From contig OZ250138.1 in the NCBI GenBank assembly GCA_965237465.1, forward strand, positions 23,137-87,136: DNA of 64,000 nucleotides. The letters are read 5' to 3'. The notes under the pieces were generated by a model. The model saw nothing but the letters and a program-made list of their open reading frames with translations. It ran no database searches and was not told the DNA's origin. Positions 2,064 to 32,790 of the stretch are shown in pieces. The stretch is from Dehalococcoidia bacterium (GTDB taxonomy: Bacteria > Chloroflexota > Dehalococcoidia > UBA6926). Both the position numbers and the translations under genes were made by a program. Every line of letters begins with the position of its first letter. Within the stretch, counting starts at the first letter, position 1.

Positions 2064-3353
2064 CTAGCTGGGGCTAGTGCTCATGGCCAGCGTGCCCGCG
2101 GAGACGGGAAGCACGCCGTGCGTCACTGCGACCTCTGCCTTGATGGTGACTTGCCGCTCGCCTGCGCGTCCCTGCAGCTGCTCAAGCGGGTCGGTGATGA
2201 ACACGGTTCGCATGCGTCCCGTGCCCATGTTGCCGCCGCCGGAGTTGAGCGGATTGGGGCCCTTCAGGCTAATGTCGCCGGCGTAGAAGTCGTGCGCCTC
2301 GCCGCGCTTGACGCCGCGCCATCCAAAGGCCTCAAGGAAGTACTGTGTGAACACTGCGAACCCGTCATAGGGCGCGAAGATGTCGATGTCCTCAGGCTTG
2401 AGGCCGGACCCGTTGTAGGACCGCTGCGCCTGGATGTCCGTCCACTCTTCCGTGTCATCGATGGTTTGGACCAGGCTTCGCGGCTGGAAGCCGCTCTGCG
2501 TGTGGTCAAGAATGTAGACGGGCTTCTGCTGCATGTCCCTGGCGCGCTCAGCCGTCGTGACGACGTAGGCCGCCGCAGCGAGAACGGGGCGGTCGCAATC
2601 GAAGATGCTGAGGTCGCGGGCGATCATTCGACCATTGAGGTAGTCCTCTTCGGTGAACTCGCCGGGCTCATGCTGCGCATAGTAGCTGTGCGGCCAGAGC
2701 TGGCCGTTCTTGCGCTCCTGCACCACAAACGGGGCCATGCCATCATGGGTCTTCCCGTACTTCTGGCAGTACTGGTTGAATGTGAAACCCTGGCCGGAGA
2801 GTCCCCAGCCCCAGGTATTCGGCCAGACGGCGGGTCCGCGGGCCTCATTGGTGGGGTCCTGATGATACCGGCCCGGCAGGTTGCCGGCGGGGTAGGTGAC
2901 CAGGACAACCTCTGCGCGGCCATCGCCGACAGCCTGGGCAGCCTGCCCTATGAGGTTCCAGATCGGGTCGCCGTGGTTGTTGATGTAGCGGATGTTCTTC
3001 ATGCCCATCTGATTTCGGAGCCACTGACCGGTGACGTGGGTCAGGCCGTCCTCAGAGTCATAGGGCGGGTCAAAGTAGGGCCGGGGGCCCCAGACATCGC
3101 TCAGAGGCTGGCCGTTGCCCTGGCCGCCCGCGGATCCAACGATGCCATCAACATCGTCGATGGTGAGCCCGGCGTCGTCGAGCGCATTCTGCGCGGCGGT
3201 CATCATGAACGCGCCAAGGGACTCATCAAGAGTCTCGCCGTCCCAGCGGCGCTCCGTGCGGGAGTGTCCTCGCGCGACCAACGCCACCTTGCCCCGGTAG
3301 GGCCAGAGACCGACGGGGTCGTGATTTCGCTCCCAGTTGACTTCACGTGCCAT
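2064..3353 (-). CDS. Thiolase-fold (SCP2/nsLTP-type) protein lacking the canonical Cys nucleophile, copy 1
   Basis: N-terminal thiolase pattern (KVALVARG...AAQNALDDAGLTIDDVDGIVGS). The canonical N-x-x-C-A-S-G position reads YINNHGDP, and there is no C-terminal Cys-His pair (NSGGGNMGTG). Followed by a DUF35 partner gene. Confidence 0.8.
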   Translation of the reverse strand: MAREVNWERNHDPVGLWPYRGKVALVARGHSRTERRWDGETLDESLGAFMMTAAQNALDDAGLTIDDVDGIVGSAGGQGNGQPLSDVWGPRPYFDPPYDSEDGLTHVTGQWLRNQMGMKNIRYINNHGDPIWNLIGQAAQAVGDGRAEVVLVTYPAGNLPGRYHQDPTNEARGPAVWPNTWGWGLSGQGFTFNQYCQKYGKTHDGMAPFVVQERKNGQLWPHSYYAQHEPGEFTEEDYLNGRMIARDLSIFDCDRPVLAAAAYVVTTAERARDMQQKPVYILDHTQSGFQPRSLVQTIDDTEEWTDIQAQRSYNGSGLKPEDIDIFAPYDGFAVFTQYFLEAFGWRGVKRGEAHDFYAGDISLKGPNPLNSGGGNMGTGRMRTVFITDPLEQLQGRAGERQVTIKAEVAVTHGVLPVSAGTLAMSTSPS

Positions 3354-3418
3354 TAGTATTTTGTCCTTTCAGCTTGCTGTCTGTCGCTTTCGCGGCAATT
3401 GCTCAATCACTGTCTCAG

Positions 3419-3850
3419 TCAGGAGACGATTTTCCACTCAGGAATCATGACGCCGGGCGCTGCCTCGACGAACATGACCTCGACGGTCGCGCCGACGGGG
3501 ATGTCGGGATCGCCCTGAATGTTGGCGCCGAAATCCTCCTCCAGGTTGGAGTGGAAGTTGATAAGCGCGTCCTCTTCCAACGCGACGATGGCGTTGATGA
3601 AGGGCTGCTTGGGGTGCCACTGAACCAGGCGGGAGTCAAACGTCATGGAGTAGCCGACGATCCTGGCTCGTCCACTGGTCTCCTGCCAGCTCAGATGGAA
3701 ATTGAAGCCGCAGTCGCGGCAGACGGGCTCAGGCGGAAACTGCCTGCGGTCGCACATTGAGCAGTACTGAACGATGAGCTTGCCCTCGTTGCAGGCATCC
3801 CAAAAGGGCTTGCTCGCTGGATCTGGAACTGGAACAATCGGTCGTGCCAT
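3419..3850 (-). CDS. DUF35 OB-fold / Zn-ribbon acyl-CoA-associated protein, copy 1
   Basis: CSMCDRRQFPPEPVCRDCG is a C4 zinc ribbon followed by an OB-fold region, the architecture typical of DUF35 partners of SCP2 thiolases. Start chosen at MARPIVPV (ATG 3850) with GGGGGTAGAA RBS, matching copy 2. Confidence 0.75.
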   Translation of the reverse strand: MARPIVPVPDPASKPFWDACNEGKLIVQYCSMCDRRQFPPEPVCRDCGFNFHLSWQETSGRARIVGYSMTFDSRLVQWHPKQPFINAIVALEEDALINFHSNLEEDFGANIQGDPDIPVGATVEVMFVEAAPGVMIPEWKIVS

Positions 3851-4040
3851 TTCTACCCCCATGTACAGTGACATTTTTGCTACCCTGCGGACAATATCAC
3901 GGCCAAAGTTTCCGTGTCAATGAGTACAGAAATACGCTGAATTAGAGATAGCAAATACTAGTATGTGCGTATATGTTCAGGCTCACCTTTTGGAAACCGG
4001 ACGCTGCGTCAGAAGGATGGGTAAACGTCGATGGCGGCCG

Positions 4041-4082
4041 CAAAAGTAGAGACGCCCCCTCGCCGGTCGGCGAGGGGGCGTC
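4041..4082 (-). terminator. Rho-independent terminator after thiolase copy 2
   Basis: Perfect 14-bp stem GACGCCCCCTCGCC ggtc GGCGAGGGGGCGTC at 4051-4082. The plus strand has AAAA immediately before it, giving a U-tract on the minus-strand transcript after the hairpin. Confidence 0.6.
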
Positions 4083-4111
4083 TCCCTTGTCCCTCTTGGT
4101 GAAGGAGAACC

Positions 4112-5401
4112 CTAGTCGGGGCTAGTGCTCATGGCCAGCGTGCCCGCGGTAACGGGGAGCACGCCGTGCGTCACTGCAACCTCAGCCTTGGTTGTGACCT
4201 GCCGCTCGCCTGCGCGTCCCTGCAGCTGCTCAAGCGGGTCGGTGATGAACACGGTTCGCATGCGTCCCGTGCCCATGTTGCCGCCGCCGGAGTTGAGCGG
4301 GTTGGGACCCTTCAGGCTGATGTCGCCGGCGTAGAAGTCGTGCGCTTCGCCGCGCTTGACGCCGCGCCATCCAAAGGCCTCAAGGAAGTACTGTGTGAAC
4401 ACTGCGAACCCGTCATAGGGCGCGAAGATGTCGATGTCCTCAGGCTTGAGGCCGGACCCGTTGTAGGACCGCTGCGCCTGGATGTCCGTCCACTCTTCCG
4501 TGTCATCGATGGTCTGGACCAGGCTTCGCGGCTGGAAGCCGCTCTGCGTGTGGTCAAGGATGTAGACAGGCTTCTGCTTCATGTCCCTGGCGCGCTCAGC
4601 CGTCGTGACGACGTAGGCCGCCGCAGCGAGAACGGGGCGGTCACAATCGAAGATGCTGAGGTCGCGGGCGATCATTCGACCATTGAGGTAGTCCTCTTCG
4701 GTGAACTCGCCGGGCTCATGCTGCGCATAGTAGCTGTGCGGCCACAGCAGGCCGTTCTTGCGCTCCTGCACCACAAACGGGGCCATGCCATCATGGGTCT
4801 TCCCGTACTTCTGGCAGTACTGGTTGAATGTGAAACCCTGGCCGGAGAGTCCCCAGCCCCAGGTATTCGGCCAGACGGCGGGTCCGCGGGCCTCATTGGT
4901 GGGGTCCTGATGATACCGACCCGGCAGGTTGCCGGCGGGGTAGGTGACCAGGACAACCTCTGCGCGGCCATCGCCGACAGCCTGCGCGGCTTGCCCGATG
5001 AGGTTCCAGATCGGGTCGCCATGGTTGTTGACGTAGCGGATGTTCTTCATGCCCATCTGATTTCGGAGCCACTGACCGGTGACGTGGGTCAGGCCGTCCT
5101 CAGAGTCATAGGGCGGGTCAAAAAAGGGTCGAGGGGCCCAGACGTCGCTCAAGGGGGCGCCGCCTGGCTGTCCGCCCGCGGACCCGACAATGCCATCGAC
5201 TTCGTCGACGGTTATGCCGGCGTCGTCGAGGGCGTTCTGTGCGGCTGTCATCATGAACGCGCCAAGGGACTCATCAAGGGTCTCGCCGTCCCAGCGGCGC
5301 TCCGTGCGGGAGTGTCCTCGCGCGACCAACGCCACCTTGCCCCGGTAGGGCCAGAGACCGACGGGATCGTGATTTCGCTCCCAATTGACTTCACGTGCCA
5401 T
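4112..5401 (-). CDS. Thiolase-fold protein lacking the canonical Cys nucleophile, copy 2 (about 97% aa identity to copy 1)
   Basis: Same length (429 aa) and near-identical sequence to 2064..3353, with scattered substitutions. Confidence 0.8.
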   Translation of the reverse strand: MAREVNWERNHDPVGLWPYRGKVALVARGHSRTERRWDGETLDESLGAFMMTAAQNALDDAGITVDEVDGIVGSAGGQPGGAPLSDVWAPRPFFDPPYDSEDGLTHVTGQWLRNQMGMKNIRYVNNHGDPIWNLIGQAAQAVGDGRAEVVLVTYPAGNLPGRYHQDPTNEARGPAVWPNTWGWGLSGQGFTFNQYCQKYGKTHDGMAPFVVQERKNGLLWPHSYYAQHEPGEFTEEDYLNGRMIARDLSIFDCDRPVLAAAAYVVTTAERARDMKQKPVYILDHTQSGFQPRSLVQTIDDTEEWTDIQAQRSYNGSGLKPEDIDIFAPYDGFAVFTQYFLEAFGWRGVKRGEAHDFYAGDISLKGPNPLNSGGGNMGTGRMRTVFITDPLEQLQGRAGERQVTTKAEVAVTHGVLPVTAGTLAMSTSPD

Positions 5402-5490
5402 TAGTGTTCTGTCCTTTCGACTGGAATTGCTATCCGTGACTCGCAGCGGCGCAATGCGGAGTTTTCGCCGCTATCTGGTTGATATATCAG

Positions 5491-5922
5491 TCAGGAGACG
5501 ATTTTCCACTCAGGAATCATGACGCCGGGCGCTGCCTCGACGAACATGACCTCGACGGTCGCGCCGACGGGGATGTCGGGATCGCCCTGGATGTTCGCGC
5601 CAAAGTCCTCCTCCAGGTTGGAGTGGAAGTTGATAAGCGCGTCCTCTTCCAACGCGACAATGGCGTTAATGAAGGGCTGCTTGGGGTGCCACTGAACCAG
5701 GCGGGAGTCAAACGTCATGGAGTAGCCGACGATCCTGGCTCGTCCACTGGTCTCCTGCCAGCTCAGATGGAAATTGAAGCCGCAGTCGCGGCAGACGGGC
5801 TCAGGCGGAAACTGCCTGCGGTCGCACATTGAGCAGTACTGAACGATGAGCTTGCCCTCGTTGCAGGCATCCCAAAAGGGCTTGCTCGCCGGATCTGGAA
5901 CTGGAACAATCGGTCGTGCCAT
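5491..5922 (-). CDS. DUF35 OB-fold / Zn-ribbon protein, copy 2 (100% aa identity to copy 1)
   Basis: The 143-aa ORF is identical in protein sequence to copy 1 from MARPIVPV onward. Only a few synonymous nucleotide differences separate the copies. Confidence 0.75.
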   Translation of the reverse strand: MARPIVPVPDPASKPFWDACNEGKLIVQYCSMCDRRQFPPEPVCRDCGFNFHLSWQETSGRARIVGYSMTFDSRLVQWHPKQPFINAIVALEEDALINFHSNLEEDFGANIQGDPDIPVGATVEVMFVEAAPGVMIPEWKIVS

Positions 5923-18480: not shown

Positions 18481-19278
18481 CTATTCTCCTCCGGCAACAA
18501 AGCTCAGGTCTGGCGCGACTGTCACGAACCGGTTGAGCGAATCGTTGAAGATGTCCTGCATCTCAATGTGCGGGAAGTGCCGGGCCAGCGGAATAGTGTC
18601 AAAGGATGCCTGCTGTATCCCGCCCAAGAGCCCGCCGGCCTGCTCCACCAAGGGGTCTTCCTCTCCGAAGATGATATGCGTGGGCGCCTGGATTGATGCG
18701 AGGCGAGGCATGCCGTCCCACTTGGCGGCCGCGACCAGATCCCGGATCGCCGTATCCGGGCGCTGCGCCATTCTGGCGGCGGTGAGCGCCTCGGCCGGCT
18801 GCGGCAGTGGCGGCTCTCGCAGGCCACGCGTCGCATTGCGCTCTCGATAGCCCGCCGGATCGGCCGCAAGGTCCGCTGCAGCGTCCGCGGCCCAGGGAAA
18901 CGTCACTCCCGTGCCGATCAGCGTAAGTGCCTCCACTTTGTTCGGGAATCGGTGCGCGTATTCCAGGGCAATGGCGCCGCCGAGGGCATGACCGCACAGG
19001 ATAACCGGCGCCAGGCCGAGCGTCCCGATAAAGTCATCCAGAAATGAAGCCCACTCGACAACCTCTTCCAGGGCGTCGCCGCTGGATTGTCCATGGCCCA
19101 GCAGGTCTGGCGCGATGGGAGTCTGTGACGGCGCGAAGAAGCGGAGCTGACCCTCGAAAAGTCGGTGATCAACGCCCGGCCCGTGGATAAAAAGGATGCG
19201 CGCGCCGCGCTCCGAGGAGCCAAGCTCACGAGGAGCGGCGTAGTGGATAGTATCCCCGCCAATGTTGACCTGCGGCAT
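18481..19278 (-). CDS. Alpha/beta-hydrolase-fold protein with Ala at the nucleophile-elbow position (GHALGG)
   Basis: HGPG oxyanion motif and alpha/beta fold pattern. The elbow reads VILCGHALGGAIAL, checked directly on the DNA. Confidence 0.7.
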   Translation of the reverse strand: MPQVNIGGDTIHYAAPRELGSSERGARILFIHGPGVDHRLFEGQLRFFAPSQTPIAPDLLGHGQSSGDALEEVVEWASFLDDFIGTLGLAPVILCGHALGGAIALEYAHRFPNKVEALTLIGTGVTFPWAADAAADLAADPAGYRERNATRGLREPPLPQPAEALTAARMAQRPDTAIRDLVAAAKWDGMPRLASIQAPTHIIFGEEDPLVEQAGGLLGGIQQASFDTIPLARHFPHIEMQDIFNDSLNRFVTVAPDLSFVAGGE

Positions 19279-19436
19279 GATGTATCTACTCTACATGAGC
19301 ATCCGATGCTCGACGCGGTCGCGGGCGCATGTTGCCCCTCCGCCTGCCGCTATAATTGATTCTGCGCGGGCATGTGATCAGCCCCGCGCCGATTCCAGCA
19401 ATCTGATGGTGTGAAGGGCCTGGGAGACAATTCAAC

Positions 19437-20477
19437 ATGGCGACTGCGGACGAGATCCGATTGACAAGCCTTTCGCACTGCGCCGGTTGAGCGGCAAAGC
19501 TCGGTCCTGCCGAGCTGGCGCAGGTTCTGCGCCATCTGCCGCCGGTGACAGATCCCAATCTGCTTGTCGGCATCAACACCGGCGATGATGCGGCCGTTTA
19601 TCGATTGACGGATGAGATCGCCCTGATTCAGACGGTCGACTTTTTCCCGCCTGTCGTCGATGACGCCTATGACTTTGGAGCCGTGGCGGCGGCTAATGCC
19701 CTGAGCGATGTGTACGCGATGGGCGGACACCCGATCATCGCCCTCAACATCGTCGCCTTTCCCGACGCCCTGGACAAGGAAATCCTTGGCCGCATCATTC
19801 AAGGCGGCGCGGACAAGGCGCGTGAGGCGGGAGTGTTGATTGTCGGCGGTCACACTATTGATGATCCTGAACCGAAGTACGGCTTGTCCGTCACCGGCCT
19901 TGTGCATCCTGGACATCAGGTGGCAAACGTTGGCGCGCAGGCGGGCGATTCGCTGATTCTCACCAAACCCCTCGGCAGCGGCGTGCTGACAACCGCGCAC
20001 AAGAACGGAGCGCTTGATGCGGACACCCTCGCTCGAACAGTAGCAATCATGTCCGCCCTGAATCGAGATGCGGCGGAGGCGATGATTGAGATCGGCGTCA
20101 ACGCCTGCACGGACGTAACAGGCTTCGGCTTGCTGGGCCACATGAGCAGCATGCTGGAGGGCAGCGGGGTGGGAGCGCGCATTTCCCTGGCGGACATGCC
20201 AGTCATCCCCGAGGCGTGGGACATGATTGAGCGGGGATTTGTGCCCGGCGGGACAGGCCGAAACCGCCTGTGGATTGAGGATGTAATTCAGTGGCATCCG
20301 GACGTGACAGAGGCAGGGCGCATCATGGTGATGGATGCCCAGACGTCCGGCGGACTGCTCATCTCCGTTACGGAGGAACGACGCGGCGCGCTTCTTGACG
20401 CCCTACAGTCTCGTGGTGTGCAGGGCAGTGTCATCGGATCTGTCACAGAGGACACGGAGATTCATGTCCTCCCATAG
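19437..20477 (+). CDS. selD: Selenide, water dikinase SelD with selenocysteine (in-frame TGA at 19488-19490)
   Basis: From ATG 19437 the frame reads [45 protein letters not shown], aligning with E. coli SelD IRLTQYSHGAGCGCK...DPNLLVG. The TGA sits exactly at the catalytic Cys17 position. The remaining 310 aa are canonical SelD. Confidence 0.75.
19497..19516 (+). promoter_or_regulatory. Candidate SECIS hairpin 7 nt downstream of the UGA
   Basis: AGCTCGG tcctg CCGAGCT stem-loop with G and U in the apical loop. Its position relative to the UGA is compatible with a bacterial SECIS. Confidence 0.4.
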
Positions 20478-20562
20478 CGTCAACGCCTCATGCACCTTAT
20501 CGCAACGTCTTAACTGTAGAGCGCTTCCGCCCAGGTGACCCTGGTCTACATGGAGAGTTGAT

Positions 20563-21003
20563 ATGGCCGTGCTTGAGATTGCCCAGGAATTCATTGACGG
20601 GATGATTGCCCACTCGCGGCAGGAGGACCCAAATGAGTGCTGCGGTGTCTTGCTTAGCGAGGGCGGGCAGGTTGTGGCGATCCGGCGTGTGCCCAACGCC
20701 GAGGCCAGCCCGTTCCGATACAACATGGACACGCAGGAGTTCTTCAAGGTCTATAAGGAGTCCGAGGAGAAGGGGTGGGACATGTGGGGGTTTTACCACT
20801 CCCATACGCACTCTCCGGCGTATCCGTCCCAAACTGATCGAAATCTAGCTGCATGGCCCGGCTCCTACTACCTGATCGTCTCGCTGGAGGACAAGGAGGC
20901 GCCTGTCGTCCGCGCGTACTCCATCTCAGACGACAACGTTGAGGGGCATGAGATCCGCGCAGTCGACGGCCTGCGCGCATCCCAGGAGGCCGGCGCCCCA
21001 TGA
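20563..21003 (+). CDS. JAMM/MPN+ metalloprotease of the Mec+ type
   Basis: EC...HSHTHSPAYPSQTD JAMM motif. At 146 aa with overall similarity to mycobacterial Mec+ (Rv1334-like). GGAGAG RBS. Confidence 0.75.
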   Translation: MAVLEIAQEFIDGMIAHSRQEDPNECCGVLLSEGGQVVAIRRVPNAEASPFRYNMDTQEFFKVYKESEEKGWDMWGFYHSHTHSPAYPSQTDRNLAAWPGSYYLIVSLEDKEAPVVRAYSISDDNVEGHEIRAVDGLRASQEAGAP

Positions 21004-21365
21004 GTCTCATCGCCGCAGCTATCGCTGCGGCGCTCGGCTGGATCACGCTGACTGGGACGGCCATCTGGTACTGGAACGTCGTCGTTCCCGATCTCTACGA
21101 AGGGGACTCCTCGCTCCCATTCTTCGGCGTCATGATTGGGGCGGGGCTGGCCTTCCTCGGCGTCCTGATTGGAGCGATCCGGAGAACTCAGGAGAAGGCG
21201 GACGGCCTCGCGACCATGGTTGTTGCCGCTTTTGTTCTTGTAGCGATCATATTCAGCACTCTGACGACGACAGGCGTGCTGCTGATCCCGGGATTCCTGG
21301 CATCAACTCTCGCGGCATCCCTGCCCGCAACGCGCCCGTGGCAGCGAGACTACGCCTCGCCCTAG
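21000..21365 (+). CDS. Small integral membrane protein (3-4 TM), unknown function
   Basis: Strong AGGAGG RBS. ATGA overlap with the JAMM stop. Hydrophobic helices. Confidence 0.55.
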   Translation: MSLIAAAIAAALGWITLTGTAIWYWNVVVPDLYEGDSSLPFFGVMIGAGLAFLGVLIGAIRRTQEKADGLATMVVAAFVLVAIIFSTLTTTGVLLIPGFLASTLAASLPATRPWQRDYASP

Positions 21366-21441
21366 GTGCCTAGCTTTGGAGAACTGCGCAGAGCGCCGAC
21401 CCTGGGCCGCCTAACGGCGGCAGTCGCTGCTATTGGTCGCC

Positions 21442-22326
21442 CTACTCAGAGCGCCTGGCGACAATCCATGAATCAACAACTTGCTGGAGAATTTCAAGCT
21501 CTTGCAGCTTGAGGTTACCCGCGGCCTTGAGCGCCTCGGCCAAGAGGCTCTGAGACCTCGCCTCTTGCATTGATGTGCCGGCGTCCAGGCTACCCTGCGA
21601 CTTGAACCACAACTCAATGTCGGCGTCCTCCGCCTGCTCGATGTCTTTTTCGATCATCCGCAAGAAGTGAGTCCGCATGTATTGCGTCACGCGCTCATCG
21701 TCGCCGTCCGGCGTCTGGATATACAGCACCCCGCCCTCAGAGCGCACATAGCGACTGTTAGGAGCACCGGTTGAAGCGGGCGGCGCCGGCGCCTGTGGCT
21801 GAGCGTGTGGGCTGTCTGAAATCGCCGGTTGACCGGATTGCGCATTACCCGCCGGCGAGTACCGCGGCGCCGGCGGCAAGCCACCCCCGCCCGCCTGATA
21901 ACGCGGAGGAGCGCCTAACTGGCTGCTGCTTGGCCGAGGCGGAGTCGGTGAGGATGCTTGTGGCAGCGGTGGAGGCTTTGCGCCACCGGATTGCTCCCCC
22001 GTCGGCGGCTGGTTCAATTCCTGCTCAAGCGAATCGTTTGGGTTCATCACCTGCGGCAGGTTCAGGATCTTGAGCTCCCTCGTCACCATGTCCGTCGCCG
22101 ACTCAGTCGCAAGTTTCCCGGTGACGCGCTCGCCCGTCGTGTCCTCCCGCGACCGCAGTCCGAAGAACTGCTCAACCTGCTTGTCCGTCGCCTCTTCGGG
22201 CGTGACGCCGGTCAGCCGATAGAAGTGCATTCGATTCATCCCGGCCATCACAACCTCGGCGTTGTCCAGGATGAGTCGCGCGACGCCATCCGCGTCAACA
22301 CGGAGATACTTGCTTGGCGCCGCCAT
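21442..22326 (-). CDS. Hypothetical protein with a Pro/Gln-rich low-complexity linker
   Basis: Start placed at M52 of the track ORF (ATG 22326) because the upstream part would overlap cimA. No domain recognised. Confidence 0.45.
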   Translation of the reverse strand: MAAPSKYLRVDADGVARLILDNAEVVMAGMNRMHFYRLTGVTPEEATDKQVEQFFGLRSREDTTGERVTGKLATESATDMVTRELKILNLPQVMNPNDSLEQELNQPPTGEQSGGAKPPPLPQASSPTPPRPSSSQLGAPPRYQAGGGGLPPAPRYSPAGNAQSGQPAISDSPHAQPQAPAPPASTGAPNSRYVRSEGGVLYIQTPDGDDERVTQYMRTHFLRMIEKDIEQAEDADIELWFKSQGSLDAGTSMQEARSQSLLAEALKAAGNLKLQELEILQQVVDSWIVARRSE

Positions 22327-22330
22327 GAGC

Positions 22331-23959
22331 TTAGGTCCCAGCGGAGGCTGCCTGCTCAGGCGCGCCCCAATGCATGAGCCAGTATTCGAGAGAGTCCGCC
22401 AGGGCCATCCAGGAAGCATGGATGATATTTGTGTGACTCCCGACGGTGCGCCAAACATGATCGCCGTCCGTGGATTCAATCAGGACGCGCACTGTGGCCG
22501 CCGTCGCGCTCTCCTGATTCAGGATGCGAACCTTGTAGTCCGTCAGCCGCACGACGCCGATTTGCGGGAAGCGGCTCCGCAGCGCCTTTCTCAGCGCCTC
22601 ATCAAGGGCGTTGACCGGGCCGTTGCCTTCCGCCGCCGTGTGGAACTGCTCGTCTCCAACGCGCACCTTGACGATGGCCTCGGAGAGCAGGTCCTCGCTG
22701 TCTTCCTCCACGCTGCGCGATGGACGGCGCCGCAGCGTTTCGACGACTGCCATGAAGTCCTCCAACACAAAGGCGGGGACGTAATCCGGCAGCGCTCGGC
22801 GGACCAGCATCTCAAACGATGCTTCCGCTCCTTCGAACTGGAAACCGGCCGCCTCCGCAACCTTCACCTGCTCCAGAATCGAGCGAGCAATGTCCGGCGG
22901 CACGTCCAGCCCCATTGCGTGCGTGGCCGCAAGCACGTTGCTTCTCCCCGCAAGCTCGGAAACCAGGACTCGGCGCGCGTTGCCCACTGTTTCCGGATCC
23001 ATGTGCTCGTAGCTCTTCTCGACCTTTGCGACGGCTGCGGCGTGCAGTCCGCCCTTGTGCGTGAAGGCTCGAGTCCCCACATAGGGCTGCGATGGATTCA
23101 TACCCATATTGACCAGCTCAGAGACCTCAAGGGCGATCGTGGTCAGCTTATTGAGCTGCTCATTCGTCACCACGGGAATCCCCATCTTCGTCTGCAGGCC
23201 CGGAATGATTGAGCACAGGTTTGCGTTGCCGCATCGCTCGCCGTAGCCGTTGATTGTGCCCTGCACCTGAACGATGCCGTGCTGCACGGCGGTAAGGGTG
23301 TTGGCGACAGCAAGATCGCCATCGTTGTGGACATGGATTCCTAGCGGCGTTGAGATATGCCCGCGCAACTCATCAACGACCTCGCCGAGCCGCAGCGGCA
23401 ATACCCCGCCGTTCGTGTCGCAGAGATGGATCACGTCGGCGTGGGCGTCTTCCGCTGCCTTCAAGCATTGCACCGCATAGTCCGGGTTTGCTGCGTAGCC
23501 GTCAAAGAAGTGCTCCGCGTCAAAGTGGACTTCACGGCCCAGACCCTTCAGATACTCGATGGAGTCGCAGATCATCCGGAGGTTTTCATCTAGGGTGGTT
23601 TCAAGGACTTCCGTCACATGCAGGTCCCACGTTTTGCCCACAAGCGTGATAATAGGCGCCTCAGAGTGCGCAAGCGCGAGTAAATTGGCGTCCTGCTCAG
23701 CAGTCGTGCCCGCTCGGCGGGTTGAGCCGAATGCGGCGACGCGGGCGGTATTCAGCGGCAAATCACGGACGCGCTGGAAGTACTCCTCATCCTTGGGATT
23801 CGAGAACGGCCAGCCGCCCTCAATGATGTGGATCCCCAGCTCATCAAGCTTGGTTGTAATGTCCAGCTTGTCCTTGACGGTGAGGGAGATGCCCTCCTGC
23901 TGAGCTCCGTCGCGCAAGGTGGTGTCATACAGGACTATTTGCTGCTTTTCCGTTGTCAC
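22331..23959 (-). CDS. cimA: Citramalate synthase (LeuA family with LeuA-dimer regulatory domain)
   Basis: LYDTTLRDGAQQEGISLT...HxH metal site and C-terminal LeuA_dimer region. About 542 aa, typical of CimA. GTG start at 23959 with AAGGAG RBS. Confidence 0.65.
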   Translation of the reverse strand: MTTEKQQIVLYDTTLRDGAQQEGISLTVKDKLDITTKLDELGIHIIEGGWPFSNPKDEEYFQRVRDLPLNTARVAAFGSTRRAGTTAEQDANLLALAHSEAPIITLVGKTWDLHVTEVLETTLDENLRMICDSIEYLKGLGREVHFDAEHFFDGYAANPDYAVQCLKAAEDAHADVIHLCDTNGGVLPLRLGEVVDELRGHISTPLGIHVHNDGDLAVANTLTAVQHGIVQVQGTINGYGERCGNANLCSIIPGLQTKMGIPVVTNEQLNKLTTIALEVSELVNMGMNPSQPYVGTRAFTHKGGLHAAAVAKVEKSYEHMDPETVGNARRVLVSELAGRSNVLAATHAMGLDVPPDIARSILEQVKVAEAAGFQFEGAEASFEMLVRRALPDYVPAFVLEDFMAVVETLRRRPSRSVEEDSEDLLSEAIVKVRVGDEQFHTAAEGNGPVNALDEALRKALRSRFPQIGVVRLTDYKVRILNQESATAATVRVLIESTDGDHVWRTVGSHTNIIHASWMALADSLEYWLMHWGAPEQAASAGT

Positions 23960-30113: not shown

Positions 30114-30668
30114 TTAGCGGGGAGTCGGAGGCGGCGCGCCAACCAGGACGGGACCCCGCCACGCGCCATCCCTGGAAATATTCTCGTCCTTCGTCAGGGC
30201 CACAAGTCCCGTGCGCATCAGCTCAAGGACATCGTACGGCTCCAGCAGGGCCAACAGGCTCTCCACTTGCTCCGTTGTGCCTGTCATCTCAATAATCACT
30301 GTCTTGGGCGAGACGCTGACAACCTCAGCGCCCTTGAAAAGGTCCAATATCTCGACGATCTGGCCGCGTGTCTCCCGTGTCGCGCGCACCTTGATCAAGG
30401 CCGTCTCGCGCGCCACATAGTCTTCGTCGGTGATGTCCATGACCTCTACGACGTCCACCACGTTGAACAGCTGAGACGTTACCTGGTAGAGCGCCGATTC
30501 CGGCACGTTGTCGACGACGATAGTCATGCGCGAAAAATCCGGTCGCTCTGATTGCCCCACTGCGAGGCTGGCGATGTTGAAATTGCGGCGCCGAAACATG
30601 CTCGCAACCCGATTCAGTACGCCCGGCCTGTCGTGGACCAAGGCGGAAATGACCCGTCGCATCGTCAT
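30114..30668 (-). CDS. ilvN: Acetolactate synthase small (regulatory) subunit
   Basis: ACT domain pattern. ATGA overlap with the ilvB stop. Confidence 0.85.
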   Translation of the reverse strand: MTMRRVISALVHDRPGVLNRVASMFRRRNFNIASLAVGQSERPDFSRMTIVVDNVPESALYQVTSQLFNVVDVVEVMDITDEDYVARETALIKVRATRETRGQIVEILDLFKGAEVVSVSPKTVIIEMTGTTEQVESLLALLEPYDVLELMRTGLVALTKDENISRDGAWRGPVLVGAPPPTPR

Positions 30669-32386
30669 CGCGTCATTGCCTCGGTCGGTTTCGGATTCAT
30701 CTCTGGATCCTCGACCATCTCCTTGACGGATTGACCCGCCGGAATCATCGGATAAACCAGCTCGTCAACCTCCACCATGAACTCAATGATCACCGGGCCA
30801 TCGTAGTCCTGCGCCTGCTTGATCGCGGCATCGACGTCCTTTATGTCATCAACGCGGATGCCGAGCATCCCGTACGCCTCGGCCAGCTTAACAAAGTCCG
30901 GCCCTGTTGTTTCAATCTGGCTATAGCGTTTGTCGTAGAACAGCGTTTGCCACTGGCGAACCATGCCGTGGTGCTGGTTGTTCATGATCGCGAACTTCAC
31001 CGGCGCTCGTTCATCCCGAATCGTGGCCAACTCTTGCAGCGTCATCTGGAAACCGGCATCGCCGCAGATCGACCACACCTGCTCCTCGGGCCTGCCCATC
31101 TGCGCGCCCAGCGCCGCGGGCACCTCATAGCCCATGGTGCCGAGGCCGCCCGACGTGATAAAGCTATTCGGCTGGTCTGTGACGTAGTGCTGTGCGGCCC
31201 ACATCTGATGCTGGCCGACGCCGGTTACGATGAATGCCTTGCCGTCCGTGGCCTCATGGATCCGCTTGATGACGTACTGCGTCGACGGCTTCCCGCCAAA
31301 ATCTCTGACGATCAGAGGGTGTTCCCGCCGCAGATCGTCCACGCGGGATAGCCACTCGGGTCGAGCGGTCTGCTCGACGAGGGGCAGCAGCGCATTGAGA
31401 GAGTTCTTTGCATCGCCAACCACCGGCGCATGGGCGAACAGGTTCTGATGGATGGCGGATCGGTCGATATTGAGGTGGATTATTTTCGCGCGAGGGGCGA
31501 AGTCCGCGACACGCCCGATGATCCGATCGTCAAATCGGGAGCCGATGTTTATCATCAGATCGCACTCATTGGCGACGAGGTTGGCGAAGGCGGAGCCGTG
31601 CATCCCCATCAGGCTCAGGTGCAGGTAATGCGTGCCGGGGAACGAGCCGATGCCGAGCAACGTTGGAATTACGGGTATCTGCGCCCGCTCCGCCAGTTCC
31701 TTAAGCTCAGCCTCGGCCCCTGCGATAAGCACACCGCGCCCCGCCAAAATGACCGGACGCTCCGCCGATCTGATGAGTTCCGCCGCGTAGCGCACCTGCT
31801 CCGCGTCGGGTTCTGTTATGGGTCTGAATCCTGGCAGGTCATCCACCGTCTTCGGATAGCCCGCGTATTCAGCAACCTCTTGCAGCACGTCGCGGGGAAG
31901 ATCCACCAGGACTGGGCCGGGCCGCGCCGACCGGGCGATGTGAAACGCTTCTTTCATGACGCGCGGAATGTCCGACGCGTTCATGACCAGATAGTTGTGC
32001 TTCGTAACCGGGATCGTAACGCCGGTCACGTCCGTCTCCTGGAACGCGTCCTTTCCGATGGCAGGCCGCGTCACCTGGCCGGTGATGGCCACAATGGGTG
32101 TTGAGTCCATGAATGCGGTGCCTAGGCCGACCGCGAGGTTGATGGCGCCGGGGCCTGATGTGGCGATGCAGACGCCCACGCGTCCTGTGGCGCGGGCGTA
32201 TCCGTCGGCGGCGTGCGCCGCGCCCTGTTCGTGCCGAGTCAGGACATGATGGATGGACGGGTACTTGAGGATGTGGTCATAGAAGGGCAGGATGGCGCCG
32301 CCGGGGACGCCAAAGACGAGGTCAACGCCCTCAGCCTCAAGCGCCTCGCACACCAATTCCCCACCGGCAAGCATCCTGCTCGACAT
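30665..32386 (-). CDS. ilvB: Acetolactate synthase large subunit
   Basis: TPP-enzyme motifs. Start at MSSRMLAGGELV (ATG 32386); the track's 5' extension is unlikely. Confidence 0.85.
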   Translation of the reverse strand: MSSRMLAGGELVCEALEAEGVDLVFGVPGGAILPFYDHILKYPSIHHVLTRHEQGAAHAADGYARATGRVGVCIATSGPGAINLAVGLGTAFMDSTPIVAITGQVTRPAIGKDAFQETDVTGVTIPVTKHNYLVMNASDIPRVMKEAFHIARSARPGPVLVDLPRDVLQEVAEYAGYPKTVDDLPGFRPITEPDAEQVRYAAELIRSAERPVILAGRGVLIAGAEAELKELAERAQIPVIPTLLGIGSFPGTHYLHLSLMGMHGSAFANLVANECDLMINIGSRFDDRIIGRVADFAPRAKIIHLNIDRSAIHQNLFAHAPVVGDAKNSLNALLPLVEQTARPEWLSRVDDLRREHPLIVRDFGGKPSTQYVIKRIHEATDGKAFIVTGVGQHQMWAAQHYVTDQPNSFITSGGLGTMGYEVPAALGAQMGRPEEQVWSICGDAGFQMTLQELATIRDERAPVKFAIMNNQHHGMVRQWQTLFYDKRYSQIETTGPDFVKLAEAYGMLGIRVDDIKDVDAAIKQAQDYDGPVIIEFMVEVDELVYPMIPAGQSVKEMVEDPEMNPKPTEAMTR

Positions 32387-32467
32387 ATCGCTCCTCACTG
32401 CTCGCTCAGCCGCTTCACATGCAGACCCGCACATCCTGGAGAGTCCGCCACGGGGGCCGAACTCCAC

Positions 32468-32790
32468 ATGACCTCAATGGGCGGGTTGCCGAATCGCCCA
32501 ACAAAAAACCCGCCCCATGAAGGGACGGGAGCTCCTGGCAATCCCGCGGTACCACCCTCCTTACCTGGCTATGTCGCCAAGTCGCTCTATGGAGTTTCTA
32601 ACGGACGCCGCTCCGCCGTCGCCCAACTCCACGCCGTTTCTGGCGGCCGGTTACGCCACGGATGCTCCAGGGCGACTTCACGGGTCATCACGACCGGGCT
32701 TGCACCATCCCCGGCTCGCTGTGCGCTAGACTGACGCTACTATTCCCTATCTCAGCAATAATAATTGTGCCATTCGGATTATGGAGTGTC
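32468..32790 (-). promoter_or_regulatory. T-box riboswitch leader of the ilvBNC-leuACDB-cimA operon
   Basis: The minus-strand RNA contains AGGGUGGUACCGCGG (the T-box consensus AANNNGGGUGGNACCGCG) at 32544-32558, followed by terminator 32503-32529. A UGAGA...AGUAG GA-motif lies near the 5' end. Confidence 0.65.
32503..32529 (-). terminator. T-box leader terminator (CCCGUCCC uucau GGGGCGGG UUUUUU)
   Basis: 8-bp stem with one G-U pair and a U6 tract, immediately 3' of the T-box motif on the minus-strand RNA. Confidence 0.65.

Follow-up and report, generated by a model that had tools for sequence, protein, structure and literature searches.

A selD gene with an in-frame UGA at the catalytic codon and a covarying downstream hairpin in a Dehalococcoidia contig

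The selD gene and its in-frame UGA

A 64,000-nucleotide stretch of contig OZ250138.1 from a Dehalococcoidia bacterium, referred to here as the window, carries a gene for selenide, water dikinase (selenophosphate synthetase, SelD). Its reading frame is interrupted after 17 sense codons by an in-frame UGA at the catalytic position of the enzyme, and two adjacent hairpins, H1 and H2, follow within the coding sequence. It is highly probable, from comparison with homologs, that the whole frame encodes a full-length selenocysteine (Sec)-containing SelD, with the UGA decoded and H2 most likely serving as the Sec insertion sequence (SECIS). A preliminary description of the locus had proposed the same gene with H1 in that role. 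The features are as follows.

19437–20477, + strand: full-length selD coding sequence, selenide, water dikinase (selenophosphate synthetase); from translation, NCBIfam and PDB matches.
19437–19487, + strand: the 17 codons before the UGA, first half of the N-terminal glycine-rich catalytic loop; from the pattern of synonymous change.
19479–19481, + strand: Cys15 codon (TGC), three residues before Sec, giving C-x-x-U; from the sequence and comparison of homologs.
19488–19490, + strand: in-frame UGA, predicted Sec codon (residue 18), equivalent of Escherichia coli SelD Cys17; from alignment to 3U0O and from TGA- and Cys-containing homologs.
19497–19499, + strand: Lys21 codon (AAG), at the position of E. 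coli SelD Lys20; from alignment to 3U0O and alignment columns 10–11.
19498–19516, + strand: hairpin H1, AGCUCGGU-CCU-GCCGAGCU, the hairpin of the preliminary description, variable between clades; from folding and comparative pairing.
19517–19533, + strand: hairpin H2, GGCGCAG-GUU-CUGCGCC, loop at 19524–19526, probable SECIS core; from folding and covariation.
19545–19547, + strand: GTG, a spurious start for mechanical open reading frame (ORF) finding and gene callers, yielding a 310-amino-acid product without the catalytic loop; from the ORF listing.
19422–19426, + strand: Shine-Dalgarno-like GGGAG, 10 nt 5′ of ATG 19437; read from the sequence.
19350–19360, with TATAAT at 19352–19357: motif GCTATA(A/C)TTGA, conserved upstream of selD.

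The frame opens at ATG 19437–19439, passes through the TGA at 19488–19490 and ends at TAG 20475–20477, giving 346 codons including Sec18 before the stop. The ORF listing yields the fragment 19545–20477 alone (310 amino acids, GTG start). For profile searches of the 346-residue SelD the TGA was replaced by Cys. The product scored above the equivalog cutoff of NCBIfam TIGR00476 (selD; 395.8 bits, cutoff 125) and above the cutoff of NF002098 (366.2 bits, cutoff 299), and the first residue aligned to TIGR00476 is residue 8, ahead of the TGA. In a phmmer search of the PDB, residues 5–336 aligned with residues 4–334 of E. coli SelD (3U0O, E = 2.9e-78), and Aquifex SelD was also matched (2YYE, E = 3.5e-71). 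The hallmark of the family, an N-terminal glycine-rich loop with the catalytic Sec or Cys and a Lys three residues on, is present: residue 18, encoded by the TGA, aligns with Cys17 of E. coli SelD and Lys21 with Lys20. By these comparisons the gene is selD, and its product is predicted to synthesize selenophosphate from selenide in an ATP-dependent reaction.

These alignments agree with the preliminary description, which had stated that the listed ORF lacks the N-terminal active-site loop, that the frame from ATG 19437 aligns with the E. coli SelD N-terminus and that the TGA falls exactly at the essential Cys17. Its expectation that gene callers truncate the gene was borne out as well. In a search of a 5.8-billion-protein database, the close SelD homologs among the best 120 matches (P0001–P0120) were almost all 303–327 amino acids long and covered 88–92% of the query, their N-terminus having been cut off. 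Truncated calls that miss Sec and the catalytic loop are, among these matches, a systematic annotation error across the clade. The nearest named genome in a one-genome-per-species scan was a Dehalococcoidia metagenome-assembled genome (MAG; UBA6926), at 67% identity.

Exchange of Sec and Cys at the catalytic codon

The comparative set comprised 85 selD genes: the window gene, four close homologs (L001–L004) and 80 loci from the one-genome-per-species scan, the last drawn from Chloroflexota, Methylomirabilota, Latescibacterota, Armatimonadota, Gemmatimonadota, Actinomycetota, Myxococcota, Firmicutes and others. It spans at least 10 phylum-level groups. The catalytic codon is TGA in 70 of the 85 genes, the window gene included (Sec-type), and TGC or TGT in the other 15 (Cys-type). 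Each of the four close homologs, whose proteins are 74–89% identical and which come from different samples, shares the in-frame TGA and has an ATG 17 codons upstream. The TGA with its conserved flanks recurs in 69 other independent assemblies, which is more than chance. Pairing of Sec with Cys in homologs is a recognition criterion for selenoproteins (PMC13188914). Coding conservation was found on both sides of the UGA, the downstream side forming the bulk of the SelD alignment, and columns 10–11, the AA of the Lys codon, are invariant across the 70 Sec-type genes. These comparisons fully support the assignment of selD to the selenoprotein genes, the UGA standing where the catalytic Cys or Sec is encoded.

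Cys17 of SelD is the catalytic residue that binds selenide (PMC3956282), and an E. coli selD deletion is not complemented by N-terminally deleted SelD proteins (PMC7595633). A product initiated at GTG 19545 would therefore be inactive.

A second cysteine lies close to the catalytic residue in nearly all homologs. Among the 85 genes (the window gene and L001–L084), it stands at −3 in 27, including the window gene, and at +2 in 57; no gene has both and one has neither. The distribution is suggestive of a partner thiol that can change place, perhaps to form a selenenylsulfide.

Translation of the codons upstream of the UGA

The last 10 codons before the TGA differ between the window gene and L003 or L004 by five to six synonymous codon changes and no non-synonymous change. 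Across the 70 Sec-type genes, per-site divergence in the upstream codons follows a period of three (0.379, 0.213 and 0.586 at codon positions 1, 2 and 3). The homologous ATG of L001–L004 is likewise preceded by GGGAG or GGAGG. The synonymous-only changes, the period-3 divergence and the conserved ATG with its Shine-Dalgarno motif together indicate that the upstream codons are translated and under purifying selection. In front of GTG 19545 there is no comparable purine-rich motif. The gene calls of L001 and L002 begin at a TTG three codons upstream of the GTG position, which means that the truncated start itself is not conserved.

Further upstream, the motif GCTATA(A/C)TTGA is kept 52–88 nt before the selD ATG in the window and in L001–L004, and is probably a −10 promoter element. 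A scan of 19200–21500 for sigma-70 promoters and terminators found none above shuffle expectation near selD; the TATAAT motif was not called by the sigma-70 consensus because no −35 element lies at canonical spacing.

Two hairpins downstream of the UGA

H1 begins 7 nt past the UGA and has eight pairs, including a terminal U-G, under a CCU loop (−11.8 kcal/mol, z = −4.4). H2 abuts H1 and consists of 7 bp with a GUU loop (−11.3 kcal/mol, z = −3.7), overlapping codons Leu27-Ala-Gln-Val-Leu-Arg-His33. The preliminary description was right that H1 exists and starts 7 nt after the UGA, but the hairpin spans 19498–19516 rather than starting at 19497, and it has eight pairs, not seven. Its proposal that H1 is the SECIS was contradicted by the bacterial SECIS (bSECIS) model. 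That model has an apical loop of 3–9 nt on a stem of 4–16 bp, a minimum free energy (MFE) of −7.5 kcal/mol or lower, a G as the first or second loop nucleotide, with G or U usually coming next, and a UGA-to-loop distance of 16–37 nt (PMC13188914). H2 lies within all four limits, with its GUU loop, 7-bp stem, energy of −11.3 kcal/mol and spacing of 33 nt (19491–19523). H1 has a stem (8 bp) and energy within the limits but falls outside the other two, since its CCU loop contains no G and its spacing is 15 nt (19491–19505).

The 60 nt from the UGA onward were compared across the 70 Sec-type genes in an ungapped alignment, and a codon-level null was obtained by resampling synonymous codons according to the codon usage of the gene concerned. 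Overall pairing was 91.2% for H2 and 71.1% for H1, and pairs altered on both sides numbered five of seven in H2 and four of eight in H1. The compensatory changes in H2 replace GCG/CGC with GCU/AGU, GCC/GGU or GCA/UGC, and CAG/CUG with CAA/UUG. RNAalifold predicted H2 as the sole helix. Against the codon null, H2 showed 6.39 of 7 pairs where 4.59 were expected (Wilcoxon p = 1.7e-12), which points to selection on the helix itself, and H1 showed a marginal excess, 5.69 of 8 pairs against 5.22 (p = 0.007). All seven H2 pairs form in 49 of the 70 genes. Among the 15 Cys-type genes the mean is 3.0 of 7 pairs for H2, none reaching six, and 4.2 of 8 for H1.

Together these results indicate that H2 is most likely the SECIS core bound by SelB. 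H1 would at most be an accessory or spacer helix, and may be largely a by-product of the K-L-G-P-x-E-L codons. There is a small possibility that this selD family has a two-hairpin SECIS, in which H1 would fold the 33-nt spacer and bring H2 to the ribosome.

An outer helix in the MFE fold of the window sequence, pairing columns 4–9 with 50–55 and forming a three-way junction round H1 and H2, was rejected: it is 36% paired across the 70 genes, equal to the slid-register background.

Sec-type selD genes of Actinomycetota (L048, L049, L054 and L065) have no H2. They carry another covarying hairpin nearer the UGA, at about +16 to +34, of the form GCCCCAAG-GAC-UUGGGGC and, in L065, GUCCCAAG-GAC-UUGGGAC. 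The position of the SECIS would thus differ between clades of the selD family.

Alternative explanations

Several observations weigh against Sec insertion guided by H2. ARAGORN found only a tRNA-Pro and no tRNA-Sec in the 64-kb window, and tblastn with E. coli SelA and SelB found neither selA nor selB there; both searches agree with the preliminary description, which had placed all three genes outside the window. A read-through scan found no other TGA-containing selenoprotein gene in the window, selD being the only credible case; the other candidates were low-complexity or overlapped neighboring genes and were discarded. Taken alone, the window sequence gives no significant H2 pairing against synonymous resampling (p = 0.07), because H2 overlaps the conserved L-A-Q-V-L-R codons, and it is the comparative set that carries the case. 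Phylogenetic relatedness among its 70 sequences means that the p-values overstate independence. The H2 loop lies about 14 nt farther from the UGA than that of E. coli fdhF (+37 compared with +22/23), and its spacing is near the far end of the allowed 16–37 nt. Rfam returned no SECIS or other relevant family: a search of the whole window at the gathering threshold gave only a T-box and a tRNA, and a search of 19380–19620 at E values up to 10 gave chance-level matches.

If the gene is a selenoprotein gene, the SECIS could still be H1, as first proposed. H1 is stable, with the energy and z-score given above, its apex in the window, GGUCC, resembles the GGUC loop of E. coli fdhF, four of its pairs carry changes on both sides, and H1-like pairing (at least 7 of 8 pairs) is confined to Sec-type genes, 27 of the 70, with no case among the 15 of Cys type. 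Its loop and its 15-nt spacing are nevertheless outside the bSECIS consensus, and the apical GU is gone in L001, which is 89% identical (CGGCCCUGCCG). Whole clades, for example those of L008, L015, L016, L018, L036 and L042, are without H1, its pairing barely exceeds what the K-L-G-P-x-E-L codons lead one to expect, and RNAalifold does not predict it. We therefore consider H1 unlikely to be the SECIS.

The remaining explanations concern the UGA itself. Were it a true stop, selD would be a pseudogene, or a 310-amino-acid protein would be made from GTG 19545 with catalysis supplied otherwise; the truncated form is indeed what mechanical ORF finding and the database gene calls among the listed matches return, and no Sec machinery is seen in the window. 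This is very improbable given that the 17 upstream codons are in frame, change only synonymously among close relatives and align to both the SelD profile and E. coli SelD, and that the conserved start signals belong to the ATG and not to the GTG, which the calls of L001 and L002 replace by TTG. The truncated product would also lack the residues equivalent to Cys17 and Lys20, and N-terminal SelD deletions fail complementation (PMC7595633, PMC3956282). That 70 lineages retain TGA and 15 have Cys is what one expects of recoding rather than of gene decay. We find it just as hard to credit that near-cognate decoding or a reassigned code inserts a standard residue (Trp, Cys or Gly) at the UGA with no Sec machinery. 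Sequence alone does not distinguish the inserted residue, and Cys would be functional at residue 18, as the existence of Cys-type SelD attests. Of the other 59 genes predicted in the window, 24 end in TGA, the neighboring ftsH and JAB among them, so the genetic code is standard and not reassigned. Moreover, a hairpin such as H2, specific to TGA-type genes and under selection, is needed by SelB-dependent recoding but not by near-cognate read-through, and in related Firmicutes Sec-type selD sits beside selA, which is directly upstream in seven loci from Desulfosporosinus, Dehalobacter and Gracilibacter genomes. Finally, a sequencing or assembly error would require a one-base change from a Cys codon (TGC or TGT) to TGA, yet the same TGA recurs in the 69 other assemblies, four of them close relatives from different samples, and this explanation is effectively refuted.

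In a Nitrospirae MAG with a Cys-type selD (L028, 133–1386), a selB fragment and a tRNA-Sec gene lie immediately upstream of selD, implying that the Sec trait is present even where SelD uses Cys.

Proposed mechanism and relation to known systems

In the mechanism that we propose, translation would begin at ATG 19437, and the ribosome reaching the UGA at 19488–19490 would insert Sec instead of terminating, because a SelB-GTP-Sec-tRNA(Sec) complex would be anchored close by, on a hairpin in the coding part of the mRNA shortly past the UGA. That hairpin would most likely be H2, whose GUU loop, 33 nt past the UGA, could offer G-U for SelB. H1 occupies the stretch that separates the UGA from H2; it may act as a spacer or helper, or may be a mere by-product of its codons. 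Sec18 and Lys21 would sit within the glycine-rich N-terminal loop, with Sec18 binding selenide as Cys17 does in E. coli. From the established bacterial Sec pathway we infer SelB binding, Sec insertion and the presence of selA, selB and selC elsewhere in the genome. SelD itself supplies the selenium donor needed for its Sec residue; expression of the enzyme would thus be self-dependent, a property that has been discussed for SelD (PMC1794560).

Sec-containing SelD is one of the two most widespread bacterial selenoproteins (PMC1794560), and its Sec and Cys forms have been mapped in detail across prokaryotes (PMC4561486). Since Sec-type bacterial selD is widespread and textbook knowledge, the finding, though correct, is ordinary; the window gene is an unannotated new instance. 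It shares with Sec-type SelD proteins such as that of Aquifex aeolicus (PDB 2YYE/2ZOD, solved as the Cys variant) the family, the place of the UGA within the glycine-rich loop at the N-terminus and a SECIS hairpin inside the coding sequence immediately downstream. The loop after the Sec, U/C-A-A-K-x-G-P, also matches that of Aquifex SelD. The two differ in the second cysteine, which the window gene has at −3 (C-A-G-U) and Aquifex SelD at neither −3 nor +2 (S-S-G-C-A-A-K in the solved chain), and the window gene comes from an uncultured lineage. In E. coli SelD (3U0O), Cys17 and Lys20 correspond to Sec18 and Lys21 of the window protein, but the Cys codon requires neither recoding nor a SECIS, and the second Cys is at +2 (G-C-G-C-K) rather than −3.

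Like the SECIS of E. coli fdhF, H2 is a stem-loop within the coding sequence, 3′ of the UGA, with a G+C-rich stem and a G-U in a small apical loop. The apices are alike, GCA-GGUC-UGC in fdhF (read from the E. coli genome) and GCAG-GUU-CUGC in H2, although counted from the U of the UGA the loop is at +22 to +25 in fdhF and at +37 to +39 in H2. The fdhF SECIS has a bulged U, which has no counterpart in the perfect 7-bp helix of H2. Unlike in fdhF, the spacer of H2 holds a separate 19-nt hairpin, H1; the bSECIS consensus model (bSECISearch; PMC13188914) describes no second hairpin inside the spacer.

The useful outputs are a corrected gene model and a corrected SECIS assignment. The true SelD product would have 346 residues with Sec18, in place of the 310-amino-acid fragment. 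The recoded UGA marks an uncultured Dehalococcoidia-related lineage as a probable Sec user and predicts selA, selB, selC and probably other selenoproteins elsewhere in its genome. In addition, the comparative set defines a conserved SECIS core for a large selD clade, a hairpin over the L-A-Q-V-L-R codons, which could improve automated detection of Sec-type selD.

Genomic neighborhood of selD

The gene order ftsH, AIRC, hydrolase, selD, JAB, small membrane protein and then ilv/leu genes is common to close relatives of the window. Directly downstream of selD is a Prok-JAB gene (PF14464; 20563–21003, + strand). JAB also lies directly 3′ of selD in Chloroflexota and Actinomycetota (L001, L003–L006, L013, L040, L052 and L083), adjoining both Sec- and Cys-type genes. 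In the Actinomycetota loci L040, L052 and L083, JAB is followed by ThiS-like (PF02597) and PALP (PF00291) genes, a Mec-CysO-CysM layout, and ThiS and PALP pairs are also found no more than 10 kb from selD in L013, L060 and the Methylomirabilota loci L010, L011 and L050. The window has a JAB gene but yielded no ThiS or PALP match, and our literature search found no paper linking SelD with CysO. Whether this linkage of selD with JAB, ThiS-like (CysO) and PALP (CysM) genes reflects functional coupling of selenophosphate synthesis to a protein-thiocarboxylate-type carrier pathway, and not mere synteny, is doubtful; if true, it could represent, for example, a selenium-carrier or selenide-supply route.

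A Chloroflexota MAG (L013, 1877–5508) has two DsrE genes, DsrH and TusA before selD, and a glycine-cleavage H-protein-like gene between selD and JAB. Judged by its gene content, this locus is a dense sulfur/selenium-relay neighborhood.

Two further genes are conserved beside selD and JAB in close relatives. One (21000–21365, + strand) encodes a 121-amino-acid protein with hydrophobic membrane-like segments and no Pfam match, its start overlapping the JAB stop by 4 nt. The other (21442–22479, − strand) encodes a 345-amino-acid protein with a central stretch rich in Pro, Ser, Ala and Gln, also with no Pfam match.

Other features of the window

A tandem duplication occupies 2064–3874 and 4112–5922 on the − strand. 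Each copy contains a thiolase-like gene (PF22691, 429 amino acids) and a ChsH2 zinc-ribbon/OB gene (151 and 143 amino acids), and the copies share 97% and 95% protein identity and about 91% DNA identity. The paired 429-amino-acid ORFs at 2064–5401 were considered as insertion sequence transposases; this was rejected, as Pfam identified them as thiolase-like with ChsH2 partners and hence as a tandem gene duplication. A T-box leader at 32518–32762 (− strand; 100.5 bits, gathering score 93) precedes a gene for a thiamine pyrophosphate-dependent enzyme (30665–32467, − strand) that resembles the acetolactate synthase large subunit and stands at the head of the ilv/leu block.

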